Part shown: positions 8,160 through 64,000 of the stretch, in pieces
Layout: each line of letters begins with the position of its first letter
Numbering within the stretch: the stretch's first letter is position 1
Assembly: GCF_030028105.1 (NCBI RefSeq)
Contig: NC_092394.1
Coordinates: forward strand, 45,548,477-45,612,476
DNA from: Mobula birostris
Lineage: Eukaryota
Direction: 5' to 3'
Length of the DNA stretch: 64,000 nt
Position numbers and translations under genes: made by a program
Notes under the pieces: generated by a model
Seen by the model: only the letters and a program-made list of their open reading frames with translations
Database searches by the model: none
Told to the model about the DNA's origin: nothing

Positions 8160-10868
8160 TAATTCCAAAACTTCTCCAGGCAGTTGCTAGCACACTGTAG
8201 TCTCTTGCCAAATTCACTGATTCTAAAAATTGGCTGATAAAATAATGCTTTTTCCTCACTCAGTCAAGAATCTTCACATGGGAATATCCAGCTTACAGCT
8301 GCAACACTACTGAGCAACACGGGCAAAGAAATAACTGATAGCAGGACAGGTCTGAAAGCACCTTCTTACCTATTGTGCAGGTAACCAACAAGATCTCATG
8401 TGTGAATGACCAGGTGATGAGGCAAGATGAAGATGTGATTGAAACAAATCTGAAGGCCGATACACCGACCAGGAGAGAATGAGCACAGAAATATATGAAG
8501 AGGTCAGTTTCACCATTCAGTGTGATTAATGTGGAATGAAATGTTTAATGTATTAAAAGCACAAAGTCTCAGCAAGAATGAGCCTAACCTAGCAAGGGAT
8601 AACAATCCACATGTCAGTGCTCACCTCTCACCCTCGTTCTGTGCTAAGACATTCTAAAGAGATTATCTGCAAGCACCCACAGTGGATTGAACGCAGGCTG
8701 ACAGCTCTTCCCTTCCACCCACACCTTTCCTTCTTCCAGCAGTTTGACTCATGTATTCCAGAAATCTAGTCATGAATGAACCCACGCCTGAGAGCAAGTC
8801 AAAAATCTCTTCAATGCCTGCCTCAGTCAAACTTCAGCTGCAACTCTCATTTACTTGCCAAATTCCAATAATCCTCAAAAGTGTATCAGAAACTTGAATC
8901 CACACCTCTCCTGAATAAATTACAATGATTCATACATTCTTGTTCAGCTCAAAGCGGTTAAAACTCTTACTGAGACACTGAGACTATGCCTCCTAGTTCT
9001 AAACTCACAGTAAAAGAAAAACCTTCACTTTTCCTAGCTAATCAAACCCACTCATTCTTAAATTTTAGAGAGATATTCTAGGCTTCAGAGTATGTAGTAG
9101 GCTAATCAATCTTGCTGTAAAAGATAAGAGTATCTCAGGAATTAATTGAGTATAAAAACTGAAAACACCCAGCAAGTCTGACAGCATTTGTAAAGAAAGA
9201 AATTGACTCTATTTTAAGCCAATAGCCTTTCCTCAGAACTGATGAAAGCTTTAACGCTGATGAAAGGTCACGAGCAAAATTTTACTTGTTTTTCCTCTTG
9301 ACAAATGCTGTCAAGAGTTTTATTTCTGATTTCCAGCACATGCAGTTCTTTTGTGTTAATCTAGTAAATTCTGAAACACTTCAAGATAAGTATACCTTAC
9401 CTCGAATACAGACCACATGCTGCTTTGGCAATAGTTTGCTCAATGGCATCCTAAAACATAGGGGTCTCAAGGACAGACAAACAAGTCAGTAAATCACCAT
9501 TTATGGCCTATTAATGCACTGAAGTTTTAGAACAGAATCATCAGCTAATTATTCCCCAAATAGCTAATGAAATGATTTTGATTGCATTTGATTAAATTAA
9601 TCCAAAACCCCCTGTATACAGTACCATGCAATAGTCTTAGGCACGTTAAAAATCTGTAAAGTGAAGATGTTTTCAAAAATAATGAAATGAAGCATTTCTA
9701 AATATCAAAAAATTAATACATAGACCAGTTAAAAAAGCCGAATCAATATTTGGTATGACCATCCTTTGCCTTTAAAACTGCATCAATTCTGTTAGGTACA
9801 CTGTATTATAGGAAACCTAGCTGGAGCATCTTGGAGAACTTGCCAAAGTACTTCCGAAGACTTTGACTGTCTCACTTCTCTCTTTCCAGGTAATCCCAGA
9901 CAGCCTCCATGTTGATATGAGGGTTCTGTGGAGGCAATACCATCTGTTGTTGAAATCCTTGTTCTTCAAATCCTTGTTCTTCTTTTCACTGACGGTAGTT
10001 ATTTATGACCTTGGCTGTGTGTTTGGGGTCATTGCCCTGCTGCAGAATGAAGCTAGGACCAATCCCTGCTCGTGTTCTGTGATGGATAAGAATCTGCTTG
10101 TACTTCTCAGCACTGAGGATTCCGTTACTTCTGAACAGATCACCAACTCCATTTGCAGAAATGCAGCTCCCAAACCTGCAGGGAACTACCACCATGCCTC
10201 ATGGTTGGCCATAGCACTCTCCAGTTCTTCTATGGACAAACTTCCTGTTTGAGCCAAAATTTCATATTTTGATTCATCAGTCCAGAGGGGAGTCTCTTGG
10301 CTTTGTTTCCACTTCAGAGGTATGGCTTTTTGGCTGCCACTTCTGACAAGATTTCACTGGAATGCACAGGGGGTGTATTTGTGCTGCAGTGGTTTCTGTG
10401 CAAGTTCAGAGCTGACAGGAGTGCTGGAAGGGACATCAGTCTGCTACATTCAGTCTCCTTGGCCAACGACTGCATTCTTCTTGCACATTTCATTGTGCTT
10501 CTTCAGAAGAGCTTGGACAGCACATCTTGAAACTCCTGTCTGCCACAAAATTATTGCTTGGGAGAGATCTTGCTGATGCAGAATGATCACCTTGTGTCTT
10601 GTTGCTATGCTCATTTTTGGCGTGGTGTAAGAATTGATGATTTGAAGGATAAACTGTCACATCTGCCACACCCTCACCTTTTAGACTGAATGTCCTTTGC
10701 CCAACTTGATTCCTTCCACACCCATTTCTGTTTCAGTTAATCAGTTTATCATTCAACTCATGTCATTGATCATTAGCACCTGCTTGTTATTTGTTTAATC
10801 ATACACTGGGCTATATCTCTACAAAGTAATCAGGTTTTTATTTTGAAAAGTGGTCTATTATTTAATGT

Positions 10869-11145
10869 CCCATGATCCTCTCATATCTCCTTTGCCAATC
10901 ACCTGTCCAGCTCTTGGTTCTATCCCTCCCCCTCCTGTCTTCTCCTATCATTTTGGATCTCCCCCTCCCCCTTTCAAATCTCTTACTAACTCTTCCTTCA
11001 GTTAGTCCTGACGAAGGGTCTCGGCCTGAAATGTCGACTGTACCTCTTCCTAGAGATGCTGCCTGGCCTGCTGCGTTCACCAGCAACTTTGATGTGTGTT
11101 GCTTGAATTTCCAGCATCTGCAGAATTCCTGTTGTTGTTTGTTGT
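10869..11145 (+). mobile_element. 277-bp PLE 3'-end insert (hammerhead-bearing) inside the Tc1
   Basis: 13-bp TSD TATTATTTAATGT at 10856-10868 and 11146-11158; (TTG)n-like end; homologous to the PLE 3' regions at 38160-38480 and 44300-44637. Confidence 0.85.
11004..11039 (+). ncRNA. Minimal type I hammerhead ribozyme motif in a PLE-derived insert
   Basis: AGTC / CTGACGA / AGGGTCTCGGCCT / GAAA / TG / TC / GACT. Stem I is AGUC:GACU, the core CUGANGA and GAAA are intact, stem II is AGG:CCU, and the GUC cleavage triplet is at 11033-11035. Confidence 0.75.
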
Positions 11146-12809: not shown

Positions 12810-12981
12810 TAGTTTTCACTGATCTACTATTGGCAACTAGACTTCTTTTTAGCTGCCAGAGCCTTAGCTCTAAACTTCCAATTTTTTTTTAATATATACA
12901 TATTAAAAATTAGGGAAGTTTAGAGCCAAGGCTCTGGCAGCTAAAAAGACCTAGTTACCAATAGTGAATCAGTGAAAACTA
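12810..12981. repeat. Long palindrome (arms about 82-86 bp, about 4-nt centre)
   Basis: The left arm tagttttcactgatctactattggcaactag...taaacttcc...ttaatat is the near reverse complement of atattaaaaattagggaagtttagag...atcagtgaaaacta. Confidence 0.92.
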
Positions 12982-19500: not shown

Positions 19501-20533
19501 GAAAAACTCAAGATCAACAAGTTTGGATACTAGAAAATCAAAGAATGATGTAGGAAAATACTGATCATCGCCCATGAATTTGCTGAATGGCAGGGCAGAT
19601 TCAAGAGACCAAATGACCAATCCTATTCTCATTTATGTTTTTAAATCAAATACAATGAAGCCCCCCTCCCCAACACTCGGAAAACACACGTTCTCTTATT
19701 TTCAAACGTAGTGGAAATAAGATAGCCTAGTGTAACCAGGGAAAGATTCCTCGCTCATGTTTGACCTTGAGATTTCACAGAGCCTGGAGTAAACTTTGAA
19801 GACTCCCTGGATGACTGCCTAATGTCTGCAAACACTGTGCCCTGCAGGACAGGGTGTACCCAAGGATTGCAATGGAAGAGTCCAGCGCAATGACTGCAAG
19901 TTATGTGGGTACGGCCATGTCAGGACACTGAATGACAAACCTGTGGGAAAGCTCTTTGAATTTAGACCTCTGTTTGCCAGATGTTCACAAGGAAGAACCA
20001 GAGTTGGGCTGGGAGGAAAGGTACCCAAGTCAATGATGGTGGTCCGTCTAGCTTTGTTCTGTGGTAATTACTTTAATGTGGCAGTTATAGAAGACCTGAA
20101 TGCCCCGCTAGGACATTTGCAAGTGTTTAAGAGTCGACAACAATGTTATGTATGAAAACTATCAGAGGCAAGACAGGACAGATACTAGCGGACCACGTGG
20201 GTTATTTTTCGACCATAAGACCATAAGATATAGGAGCAGAATTAGGCCATTTGGCCCATCAAGTCTGCTTCACCATTTAAAGACCATCCAGATGCTCTGT
20301 GGTCATCAATAATACGACCAGTACTAATATCTATCCATAGTATCCTTTTGCCTTAAGTCACATATTTACAGATACTGACTGCAAAGTTGCAACGGTAAAC
20401 CAACCATCTTCCTCAGGCACAAGTTAGTCGAGTGACAAGTTCCCCCTAAAGGCACCTTGTCATTTGATTAACTTGAGCCCGAGGAAGGCAGTCAGGTTTA
20501 CCGTTGAAACACTGCAATCAGTATCTGTAAGTA

Positions 20534-44993: not shown

Positions 44994-45133
44994 AAACACC
45001 AGGAAATCTGCAAACGCTGGAATTTCAAGCAACACACATAAAAATTGCTGGTGAACGCAGCAGGCCAGGCAGCATCTATAGGAAGAGGTACAGTCGACGT
45101 TTCAGACCAAGACCCTTCGTCAGACCTAACTGA
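44994..45133 (-). mobile_element. Short PLE-tail insert (hammerhead-bearing)
   Basis: Near-identical to 10998-11135 in reverse orientation; interrupts a CR1 tail remnant. Confidence 0.82.
45092..45127 (-). ncRNA. Hammerhead motif, core intact, stem I altered
   Basis: Minus strand AGGT-CTGACGA-AGGGTCTTGGTCT-GAAA-CG-TC-GACT. Confidence 0.6.
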
Positions 45134-45562
45134 AAGCGATAGTACTAAATCTCTTCTGCCTATACATGAACCATTTATCTACACTTCCCGACTAGACTTT
45201 TCACTGCACCCTGGTACATGTGACAATAAACTAATACCAATATTCAAATACTCTTGAACACCACTGTAACATCGGTTTCCATCACAACTTCTTGCAGCCC
45301 TAGTCTTGGTGATCAGTGAGGCTTCTTTGAGAAGGGCCCCATTCATTCACGTGCAATCACCATTCTGGTAGAGGCAATTACACTAATTAGCTGGTCGAGC
45401 AGCATTTGTGGGGGCAAAGTAATTCCTCCTCTCACAGATGCTGCTCGACTCTCGAGCTCACTCAGCAGATTGCTTGTTGCTCCAGACTGAAGTATTGCAA
45501 TCTCCCGTGCCACCATAGATTATTTCCAATACAGAAGCCACATCTAACGGAGAGACACTAAC

Positions 45563-54748: not shown

Positions 54749-54828
54749 ATGACAAAGATCACAAAAGAACTATTACTTGAAAAAGGAATCCCAAAGGACT
54801 CGAAATTGGAACATGTCAAGAAAATCGA
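54749..54828 (+). CDS. LRWD1: LRWD1 (ORCA) first coding exon
   Basis: Acceptor cacag| at 54725; ATG at 54749, MTKITKELLLEKGIPKDSKLEHVKKID; donor GA|GTAAGA; 80 coding nt, phase 2. Too short for the ORF track. Confidence 0.8.
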
Positions 54829-54999
54829 GTAAGAAGTATTAATCTTTTATTACTTTTCTCATTAAAGCCCCCAGAGTGTGGGCTTCACAAGATTTTGGAA
54901 GTAAATTTTTATTGAACTGTAGTTAAAAATTATTTGAACATAACCTCAGAGATACTTCTGGATATATGTTTTATTTGTTCAGAATTGCAGTTGTTGAGA

Positions 55000-56239: not shown

Positions 56240-56474
56240 TCTTTCTAACTTAAGTTTGAAAACAAGCGATTTGGATCCAGTATTATTTTCCCAGTTACTG
56301 GAGTTGGAAGAACTGGACGTGTCTGGAAATATGCTAACAGAAATTCCAAACAATTTGGGACTTGCCAACCTGAAATGTCTAAACTGTGCCAATAATGATT
56401 TGGAGCAGATTACGTCACTTGGACAGTTTGTGAATCTTGAAGATCTCAATTGTGACGATAACTTGCATTTGACG
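56240..56474 (+). CDS. LRWD1: LRWD1 second coding exon (leucine-rich repeats)
   Basis: Acceptor tttattcag|T; LSNLSLKTSDLDPVLFSQLLELEELDVSGNMLTEIPNNLGLANLKCLNCANNDL...NLHLT; donor ACG|GTAAGT; 235 nt, phase-compatible on both sides. Confidence 0.88.
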
Positions 56475-56649
56475 GTAAGTGACTGAGTAGGAGTAAAACT
56501 GATGTCATCAAAGCAGGCATGATTAACCTTGTTTAGGTTTATTTAATGAAACATTTTCTTTTTGACCCTCTGGAAACAGTGTATGGTTTTGCTTATTACC
56601 AATTTACTAGCCTTTCAAGCCCACTTCCATTCCGTGGTTATTTACTTAT

Positions 56650-56930: not shown

Positions 56931-58009
56931 TACTCTGCCAAATGAATCAAGAGTCAGCAAATATTAGGATGTCGTTGTCACTGGAGCCTGATTTTGTTTG
57001 TAAGTGGAAGAAAATAGTTTAGTTTAATTGACTAGAGTTAATGTCTGAAGGCATAGCCTGGATTAGACAAAAATTTTTTTTCTCAGATGTACCTTGCATT
57101 AGGTCATGACTGCATTGATAATGCTCTCGTACTTACTTTTGCACTTGAAGCTTGGATATTAAGTGACTTTTGCTGTTGCCTGATTTACTTTTACGTGGTC
57201 TGGGTCTGACTCTGTCCTTCCTTTCTTGGATCTCTCCATCTCCATCTTGAGTAATAGGTTAGCAATAAACCTTTCGAAAGGACTAGAATATAAAAGGAAG
57301 TAATGCTGAGGGTTTATAAGGCATCGGTAAGGCAATATTTGTGATAATTTTTGTACCCCTTATCTAAGGAAGGATATGTTGGCGTTAGAAGGGTTTAGAG
57401 GCAGATGAGAGAAATGATCTCAAAGATGAAACAACTCCCAATTTATACTCACTGGCATTGGGAAGGATGAGGACGGGGGAATCACATTGAAATGTGCTGA
57501 ATATTGAAAGGCCTGTGTACAACTGTAGGTTCTCCTGCACAGCTCTTCACTGCATTTAATCTATTTTCTGTATCTCTGTTCTTGTTCTGTCTCCTCCAGA
57601 ACAAAGCTAGGATAAAACTTCTCTGGGTCCTTGACCCCCACACCATCAACTTTTTTGTTCAGTGGACCATCCTTTGCAATTTCTGCCAGCTTGAACAAGG
57701 TTGTAAGCCAAACACACCCATCTCCTCTCAGCAATTCAAAGGGATCATTTCCTTTGTCATTCCCCGGCCTGTGCTGTTCTAAACGCAGGAGCCACTGTTT
57801 CCTATGGCTCTTTAACATCTGCAGTATGCAGGGGTGGCTCAGAACCTCTTGCTGCTTGCCACTTTAATTCTCCATCCCACTTCCACTATTAATGCCCAAT
57901 GTCAGATTGAAGAATAGCACTTCAGGGTATTTTACAACTTCTGGACTCAATACTGAATTCTATATCTTCAGGTAACTTGCTTTTTCTAGTATAAGTGGCC
58001 ATTTCTTTT

Positions 58010-58214
58010 CGCAAACAACAGGAATTCTGCAGATGCTGGAAATTCAAGCAACATGCATAAAAGTTGCTGGTGAACGCAGCAGGCCAGGCAGCATCTCTAG
58101 GAAGAGGTGCAGTCGACGTTTCAGGCCGAGACGAAGGGTCTTGGCCTGAAACGTCGACTGCACCTCTTCCTAGAGATGCTGCCTGGCCTGCTGCGTTCAC
58201 CAGCAACTTTTATG
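58010..58214. repeat. Foldback PLE-tail insert: 77-bp inverted arms, 5-nt spacer, 14-bp TSD
   Basis: Arms 58056-58132 and 58138-58214 are reverse complements with one G:T. TGGCCATTTCTTTT is duplicated at 57996-58009 and 58213-58226. Confidence 0.95.
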
Positions 58215-59994
58215 GCCATTTCTTTTGTAAGGTTTACCAACTATGAGAGTGCAACAGTGTTTTCCTCTCCATTAACACAAACTGACCTGCTGGGCGTGTT
58301 ACTGTGCTTTCCTTATCAAATTTGTCACTCTCTAATTGCCATTATCTCATGGCCTCATTCTATTTTTTCTTTCTCATTACTGCCATAAATCCTTCGACCA
58401 TATGACCTCTGTAGGGTATCCCCTCAGCAATCTCAGCCTTGCCTTTTTAGGAACATACATTGACAATGGAACAAATGGTTACAGCGAGGCTTTCTTATTT
58501 TGTGGAGGGTCATGGAAAATTAGATGTTTCCCAATCTGGATTTTGTAAAGGGGGAATGACCAGAGACTCAGTGTTAAGTTTTGAATCTGAAATTTGTAAA
58601 GCCCCGGTTAATAAAGAATCAGTGGCAGACGTTTTATGTAGAAAAAGCTTATGGTATGTTATGGACACAAGGCTTATTGCTTAAACTTGAAAAGAGGTGG
58701 TTGATAGAATGCTCAACTGGATTCAAGATTTTTTTTTATGTAACAAGAAGATACAAGTTAAGGTGGGAGCATTTTAAGGAATGATACTTCACAGGACTGT
58801 ATGTAGCCGACTCCTTTTTAATACTATGATTAATGTTATTTTCTTAAATTCGTGTCACATTTCTAAATTGTTATATGTTAATGACAGTGTAGTGTGGAAG
58901 AGGGGCCAGGGTACAAGTTATATAGTTGGGAAGTTGCAGGCAGTTATTAATGAAATAGAAGATTGGGGATGTTGATGGAACTTTACGTTTTCTGCTGCAG
59001 AGGCTCAAGCTATTTGTTTTTTGAAAAGGAGCATTACACCCACAATTGACCTCAGTAAATCTCTTAAACAAGATTCAGTGGTAAAGTTTCTTGGTATGTG
59101 GATGGATACAAGGCTAACATGGAAAGTGCATGTGAATAAAATTCCAGAGAAGTGCAAAAATGTCCTCAATGCGCTCAGTTGGCTGTGATTGGGATGAAAG
59201 TAAGAGGTTATTAAAGCCGTACACATTTGATTAACTCAGATCTGTCTTTGATTATGGATGTGTTACTTATGGGTCAGCCTCAGCAGCAGTCTTAGATAAA
59301 GTTCAAGCTCGAGCATTAAGATTATTCTGTGGTTCTATTAAATAATTCCCAGATTTGCCATTAATAGTAGAAATGGGTGAAGTACTTTTCACATCTACAT
59401 AGGTTACAGTCAGCAGTGGTTTTATTAGGTTAGCATAAGTGGACCGTAAAGTTGGTCATCCAGTGTTGACAACATTAGTAGTGTTGGGAGCACTTCATTC
59501 GTAAGGTCTTCAGTTTTGCATGGATGGGAAATGAATGAGCACAAAAATCTTGGGTTGTTTAATGTGGATTACAGTCCCATTGTACCCCTTTCTGCCATTC
59601 CTCCGTTGGTTTTCCCTTGACCTGTGGTTGATTTAGGCCTTGAAAAAAAAAACGATCAAGATGAAGATTGATTGCATATCAGTGGTACAGGTAGTTCAGC
59701 AATATATGCAAGGCAGATATTATGGTTATTTACATATCTATACAGTTGGTTCAAAAAACCCAGTGACAGGTCATTCAGGTGTTTCTGTCTGTGCCAAGTT
59801 TCAGGTGACTATTGCAAAAGCAATGTCAGACAAAGTATCACTATTCACGTCTGAGGTGGTGTAATCATTTTAGCCTAGGAATGGATTGAAGAAGTATGCT
59901 CTGGTTATGTACTTCTGTGCTCCGATTTGTTCTTGGTTTTGACATCTATTAAACCAGATACCTCAAATTGTAGGCCAAACATTTTTCTATAGTG

Positions 59995-63215: not shown

Positions 63216-63838
63216 TTTTGACTTGAATGGCGCTTAGAAGTGTTGGACTGCATCTTTATACTTGTATTTCCTTTTAGAAGCTAATAGATTTTATTCACAG
63301 TATTTTTTTAAAGTGTAGGATTAGGTTGAGGGGACAGAAAGAACAAGTCTTAAAGTGGTGAAAGGAGTTGGAAGCATTCTTGTGTTTCAGTTTGGTGGTG
63401 TAGGGACTGCATTAAGACTGATGTCACCAGCTGCCTGCCCTGCCTACATGTAGACTACTTGAAACTGCACCTGAAATTAATTGATCAAATCTGTTTGACT
63501 TGCTGTCAAAATTCTGACAAACTCAGGATCCATGACACAAGAAAAGATACGGCGTTCCAAGTTCCAGTTTCCTTGGCTAGTTATTAATTAGATTTAATTG
63601 CTTTCTATTTTCTATTATATAACATTTGGCAGAACATTTACAGGTTGTTTTTTTTTAGACCTTCTGATCAACGTTTTATCCATTTTTCCATTGTAACATT
63701 GTAATCTGGGTAATAGGGAATCCCAAAAATAGTTCCGCAAAAAAAGGAATCAATATAATGGTAGTTAATTTCTTTTAACATATTGTGTCAATATTTTTGA
63801 TTACTATCAGGCTCTAATCTTTATTAATCTTTTTCCAG

Positions 63839-63958
63839 ATCTGTGATACATACAAGCTGATATATTTATTGCCTAACCTGCGGCAACTCAATGGCAGTGA
63901 TATAACATCCAATGGATACCAACTGAGGTTTATCAATAGCCGGCAGCTAAAGTGTCAA
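63839..63958 (+). CDS. LRWD1: LRWD1 third coding exon (LRR cap)
   Basis: Acceptor ttttccag|ATC; ICDTYKLIYLLPNLRQLNGSDITSNGYQLRFINSRQLKCQ (LPxLRxLNG cap motif); donor CAA|GTGAGT; 120 nt. The gene continues beyond the window. Confidence 0.85.
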
Positions 63959-64000
63959 GTGAGTCCAGAGAAATAGAGTAGAAAAATATTTGGTTAACAC

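Follow-up and report, generated by a model that had tools for sequence, protein, structure and literature searches.

The window, a stretch of 64,000 nucleotides of the Mobula birostris genome, contains exons of LRWD1 on the forward strand. The exon at 56241–56483 shares 99% identity with the M. birostris protein named LRWD1 and also matches a solved LRWD1 chain. Searches with the LRWD1 protein (tblastn) recover this exon and place two others at 54749–54829 and 63827–63961, with no LRWD1 exon between 56483 and 63827. Thus, the insertion discussed here lies within an LRWD1 intron of ∼7.4 kb, between exons otherwise delimited at 56241–56475 and 63840–63958 (forward strand). An earlier note on this DNA had placed the hairpin in LRWD1 pre-mRNA. 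On the strand of the gene, a donor-like splice motif (57961–57978), without sign of use, occurs ∼25 nt ahead of the left target-site duplication copy.

The insertion is bounded by a 14-bp target-site duplication (TSD), an exact direct repeat (100%) on the forward strand with copies at 57996–58009 and 58213–58226, and consists of two arms of one element in opposite orientation. Element positions are numbered so that +1 is the base with which the 5′ strand of hammerhead stem I begins; on this map the core spans +5 to +11, stem II spans +13 to +24 and cleavage falls after +32. The left, tail-bearing arm corresponds to +15 to ∼+137 in antisense. Its outer part is a one-sided tail (58010–58055, reverse strand, +92 to ∼+137) that stays unpaired in the hairpin, and its paired part (58056–58132, reverse strand, +15 to +91) ends within stem II. 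The right, short arm (58130–58214, forward strand) is the sense copy of +7 to +91, a truncated minimal hammerhead that begins with GACGA and whose final 2 nt are common to the right TSD. It lacks the catalytic C and U as well as the 5′ strand of stem I, and keeps the predicted cleavage triplet (58153–58155). Both arms include 58130–58132 (arm overlap −3), a 3-nt junction microhomology between +7 to +9 and +15 to +17, and the next 5 nt of the short arm (58133–58137, forward strand, +10 to +14) form the loop.

The hairpin arms (58056–58132 and 58138–58214) are 77 nt each, 5 nt apart and 99% complementary; their sole mismatch, at 58142, is a C-to-T substitution within a CpG. The predicted RNA fold reaches −179.5 kcal/mol (z = −20.9), a value equalled by none of 200 shuffles. 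All parts of the earlier description (77-bp arms, a single G:T, the GAAGG loop and the 14-bp duplication) were found again by coordinates, and the element numbering agrees with a left arm that ends in stem II and a right copy that opens at GACGA without the catalytic CU. An active hammerhead combines a CUGANGA core with stem I, a combination that is absent here, the right arm starting at +7 and the left at +15; both half-ribozymes are predicted to be inactive.

In the LRWD1 pre-mRNA, the predicted 77-bp duplex would have the splice donor ∼1.5 kb away and the acceptor 5.6 kb away. Such a candidate, fold-predicted hairpin might plausibly be edited or diced, or extrude as a cruciform. Nothing marks the LRWD1 locus out among thousands of such palindromes, and the hairpin is likely a neutral by-product.

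In independent short-read contigs from the probable source sample, the left junction (57858–58027) and the right junction (58188–58700) are both crossed with 0 differences, so that the outer junctions show no sign of the assembly artefact that the earlier note had allowed for. An artefact confined to the palindrome centre, which no contig spans among the matches listed, is extremely improbable: the two outer junctions appear in opposite orientation in these contigs, the TSD is exact, the arms differ at one CpG and sister junctions are varied and number in the thousands. Contigs of a second organism, from another study, extend into the tail by 22 nt on the left side and, on the right, into the short arm by 11 nt, with 17 further letters unaligned; their flanks show 18 substitutions over ∼1,025 bases (about 1.8% divergence), and the empty site was not seen in this organism among the matches listed. 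The insertion appears to be present in this related species as well. As its contigs enter the insert from both sides, the insertion probably predates the split between the two organisms. The recent arrival advocated earlier holds loosely at best. The LRWD1 copy is among the least mutated, its zero arm differences over +22 to +86 being shared by 31 of 139 pairs, but the second organism apparently has the insertion.

On sequence grounds, the locus is assigned to an endonuclease-bearing Penelope-like element (PLE), inserted head to head and 5′-truncated; an inverted 5′-truncated copy, a one-sided tail and a TSD, all traits of EN+ PLEs, are found together. The copy itself is dead and one of thousands in the ray genome. 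The PLE origin claimed earlier is borne out by sister arms that extend upstream into GIY-YIG and reverse transcriptase (RT) coding sequence. The GIY-YIG endonuclease (PF01541) scores 23.7 bits (cutoff 22.6) in locus L107, one of four proteins scanned, and 19.6 bits in a second copy; it is C-terminal, just upstream of the pLTR, and a CxxC..H..H pattern is visible in eight natural copies. RT (PF00078) is matched on a fragment with E = 1.8e-4 and 21.7 bits, below the cutoff of 29.6, and a catalytic-type YIDD motif is visible. A three-cysteine Cx4Cx2C linker, a trait ascribed to Neptune elements in the available text of PMC8557442 and also shared with Nematis, is intact in three of eight copies and decayed in the others. 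The longest reference copy measures 1.86 kb, and none of the copies recovered is full-length. In L107 (2967–3725 and 6102–7877, reverse strand), a PLE insertion splits an element that, as judged by eye, is LTR-retrotransposon-like and contains a zinc-knuckle ORF of gag type.

The pLTR contains a minimal hammerhead. Two young sister copies with a complete core lie in the window at 10866–11136 (forward strand) and 44994–45136 (reverse strand), with core motifs at 11008 and 45100, and the intact copy near 11004–11040 folds hammerhead stems I and II. Rfam gave 0 matches in the window at the gathering score, a search that is uninformative for minimal hammerheads. About six older, diverged copies of the PLE end are found between 28.8 and 48.3 kb of the window. 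Two older imperfect palindromes, with self-complementarity of 85% at 12810–12981 and 78% at 20363–20533, have no relation to the PLE end and are possibly MITE-like.

A sister set of 429 arms from 215 loci, together with the window, yielded 166 head-to-head pairs: 32 from an unselected anchor run on contig C1, 133 from loci picked as palindromes and one at the LRWD1 locus. Nearly all come from contig C1 or from the first of the listed matches, and a few loci resemble segmental duplicates, which makes the pairs partly non-independent. One tailed and one short arm are combined in 158 of the 166 pairs, the short arm ending at +87 to +111 in 136, and only 1 tail-to-tail pair was found against the 166 head-to-head. 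TSDs of 12–17 bp (mode 14) flank 140/166 pairs, and duplications of ≥11 bp occur in 0/166 controls; this upholds the earlier proposal that both arms came in one event. The 60 unpaired, unselected arms comprise 16 with their own TSD, 7 touching an inverted piece, 1 cut off and 36 unresolved. Single arms with a TSD end either at the tail (10) or at +87 to +111 (6).

Short-arm 3′ ends (L002–L030 and the window) usually share a few bases with the TSD, 2 nt at the LRWD1 locus, which suggests pairing of the target with the RNA at that start site. Identical arm limits and junctions, 160–380 kb apart on contig C1, are seen in L081/L084 and in L082/L090, which points to segmental duplication or to whole inverted insertions having been copied again. 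In L018 (∼1198–1511), tandem units of ∼62 nt, each restarting at or just before +1, lie beside the same junction. They resemble the outcome of successive template jumps at the 5′ end of the RNA, or the beginnings of a retrozyme-like array; L024, L121, L131, L156 and L251 contain shorter restarts.

Genome-wide, the hammerhead 14-mer has 55,173 exact occurrences, with 885, 1,676, 464 and 241 head-to-head pairs at gaps of 0–30, 31–60, 61–90 and 91–120 nt. When the downstream anchor (+40 to +53) is used as a second pair, the same gap bins hold 281, 2,342, 3,181 and 872 palindromes, corresponding to mean junction positions of ∼+25 to +40, +10 to +24, −5 to +9 and −20 to −6. These counts are exact-match lower bounds, and with at least 6,676 head-to-head palindromes in the genome, the insertion is not the singular event implied earlier. 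The 21-mer across the LRWD1 junction itself occurs 51 times. One junction common to 51 copies could betray a palindromic mini-element of MITE-like or retrozyme-like type that is copied whole. However, the 30 copies fetched, 22 of them with ungapped arms of at least 35 nt, differ in arm lengths, ends, subfamily letters and flanks; the tail sits on either arm (11 versus 13), junctions are very diverse genome-wide, and fixed ends are not inherited together with the junction, as they would be in a MITE. Such a mini-element is largely refuted and has very little chance of being correct; the differing ends and flanks indicate a recurrent microhomology hotspot and no amplified unit.

The arms end at characteristic positions. 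Among 92 unselected anchors, stops number 7 in +15 to +22, 10 in +6 to +14, 15 in +1 to +5, 5 in −4 to 0 and 7 in −14 to −5. The −34 to −15 bin was dropped, 23 of its 26 stops being an artefact of a variant in the reference copy, and 5′ ends of older subfamilies were excluded because their homology to the reference ends near +1 anyway. In +1 to +5, 15 of the 75 arms at risk stop (0.04 per base), and those that pass spread to −1721. The further-reaching arm in 124 short junctions ends at +1 to +4 in 66 cases and at −4 to 0 in 9. Collectively, there is a wall at the 5′ edge of the ribozyme, with one-sided trimming behind it. The earlier note had tied breakpoints to the hammerhead, and their histogram is indeed non-uniform, but the peak lies at the 5′ edge of the ribozyme and not in stem II or at the cleavage site. 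The two middle bins hold 5,523/6,676 palindromes; the cleavage-site bin is the smallest of the four (281/6,676), and this site was rejected as the breakpoint. On this point the 124 parsed junctions are uninformative, as the anchors used to pick most of them extend across the cleavage site. Splicing to an acceptor-like sequence upstream was likewise rejected as the cause of the wall: no shared upstream exon was seen by eye in 60 loci, and the peak is at +1, not at −1 or +3.

RT arrives at +1 only after traversing the entire ribozyme, and the cleavage site is retained in both arms; the template was therefore uncleaved. Position +1 is likely the 5′ end of the RNA, i.e. the transcription start, which is the simplest reading of the wall. 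Its context is pyrimidine-pyrimidine-A, which we take to resemble an initiator motif. No excess of extra G before +1 was found as a cap mark (G 1,354 versus A+C 2,636), so that the assignment draws on position and on the initiator-like context. In the available text of PMC2377424, the Penelope promoter is located in the pLTR.

At the LRWD1 locus, the short arm has +7 to +14, absent from the tail arm, and the tail arm has +92 to +137, absent from the short arm. As each arm holds sequence missing from the other, neither was copied from the other. A folded-back cDNA copies only its own content, and therefore simple fold-back cannot yield this copy. The self-priming of one cDNA envisaged earlier is thus not supported, the tail-less arm extending further 5′ here as in 77 of 159 pairs (tail arm further in 78, tie in 4). 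Most likely, the LRWD1 copy arose from two target-primed cDNAs joined at the 3-nt microhomology. The reading favoured in general, with a probability of about 0.6, is that each strand of the 14-bp staggered cut primed its own cDNA, the two cDNAs then being fused. The two 3′ overhangs would prime reverse transcription at internal start sites near +100 and +134, and both cDNAs would extend along uncleaved RNA as far as, or almost as far as, its 5′ end at +1, the likely transcription start; the cDNA ends would then be trimmed by 0–25 nt and joined via microhomology. The two cDNAs would usually, not always, derive from the same source RNA. In the sister pairs, the subfamily transversion at +50 differs between arms in 15/147 (background of 0.76% for all transversions), microhomology of ≥2 nt occurs in 34 of 67 insert-free junctions (∼16% expected for random joins) and extra bases are found in 57/124 junctions. 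Polarity, mixed arms, microhomology and extra bases, together with the two-strand extension in vitro reported in the available text of PMC11167929, favour double priming. The wider proposal that PLEs use symmetric double priming at two fixed RNA sites, with run-off at the hammerhead's first base and fusion by end-joining, and that >6,600 such events are recorded in this genome, has about an even chance of being right.

The two arms of a pair are nevertheless related. They agree at subfamily sites in 146/155, 132/147 and 122/126 pairs, where 76, 62 and 35 differences would be expected from independent arms, and diverge by 3.0% within pairs versus 4.7% at random. In the 32 unselected pairs, both arms extend beyond −100 in 8 and one arm in 2, compared with ∼13 mixed pairs expected from independence. 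This concordance and the correlated extents imply a template that is mostly shared, and also fit a hairpin intermediate made first, by self-priming on antisense RNA or by fold-back of a long cDNA, whose arms the endonuclease would trim to ∼+100 and ∼+134 at integration. For the palindromes of rotifer PLEs, the available text of PMC3846280 proposes self-priming on an antisense template, and that of PMC8557442 proposes that the tail results from resolution by the endonuclease. Random trimming could yield the 78:77 polarity. A hairpin made first sits badly, however, with pairs whose arms belong to different subfamilies at +50, with single arms that have a TSD and end at either site, and with the frequent extra bases, which are closer to end-joining than to clean fold-back. 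In addition, the two ends match RT start sites measured on sense RNA in Anolis, as given in the available text of PMC11167929. A hairpin intermediate is considered unlikely.

Still less probable is a single cDNA that stalls at the folded hammerhead and then switches template or primes itself there, the mechanism suggested in the earlier note. Junctions do gather within ∼25 nt of the 5′ half of the hammerhead, as the middle bins show, and short inverted motifs of the ribozyme provide microhomologies, such as the one at the LRWD1 locus with its 51 recurrences. Against this, neither arm at the locus contains the other, a polarity found in 77/159 pairs, the further-reaching arm commonly ends at +1 to +4 (66/124), past the whole structure, and the bin covering the cleavage site is the smallest of the four. 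A variant in which a protein-bound or dimeric fold halts RT exactly at +1 is possible.

As a single locus, the LRWD1 insertion is of little weight, and the family is of modest interest as a junction record. Its thousands of junctions, balanced in polarity and now and then with mixed arms, speak against simple fold-back; they also tie the two start sites described in vitro in the available text of PMC11167929 to insertions found in a genome. The many hairpins located in introns could supply a great deal of dsRNA. According to the available text of PMC3215922, inverted Alu pairs that lie close together are depleted in humans. If priming from both target strands is the true mechanism, the ray genome tolerates a load of short-spacer palindromes of the kind depleted among human Alu pairs. 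Given this human depletion (PMC3215922), the survival of ray palindromes is worth measuring.

The combination of inverted repeat, one-sided tail and TSD is already known from PLEs and is found here in a new host family. Adineta Pen2a, as depicted in the available text of PMC3846280 and in the legend to Figure 2 of PMC8557442, has the same head-to-head inverted and 5′-truncated copy, the same overlap or palindrome at the junction and a 30–40-bp tail on one end, the whole unit lying within one TSD. In contrast to what PMC3846280 describes in its available text, ray arms are cut to ∼85–125 nt and have no ORF, ray TSDs centre on 14 bp instead of 8–10, and ray copies occur in thousands. The origin of PLE inverted repeats is called unresolved in the available part of PMC8557442. 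The ray ribozyme shares with metazoan PLE minimal hammerheads, as presented in the available text of PMC4209133, a bulged base before stem II, a palindromic minimal stem III and a short stem I. It differs in that both LRWD1-locus copies are truncated and give no Rfam match at the gathering score; the same text reports Schistosoma hammerheads in opposite-strand pairs 100–700 bp apart.

The closest biochemical parallel is the Anolis Poseidon protein PAc, which, in the available text of PMC11167929, cuts and extends both strands in vitro, is modelled as a dimer and starts at two internal sites bracketing the tail, mostly on uncleaved RNA. The ray insertions likewise have two internal end points around the tail, a hammerhead near the start and an uncleaved template. 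PAc belongs to the Poseidon clade, whereas the ray family has a Neptune-type linker, and the available text of the Anolis study contains no inverted insertions from two-strand priming and no junction map (PMC11167929). A title- and abstract-level literature search of journals outside subscription found no publication applying twin priming to PLEs. In L1 twin priming, too, the second target strand primes a second cDNA, and the inverted product has a microhomology junction within one TSD. L1 inversions mostly join non-overlapping parts of one RNA and include a poly(A) end. In contrast, the arms of the ray insertions overlap almost fully, and both of their starts are fixed internal sites.
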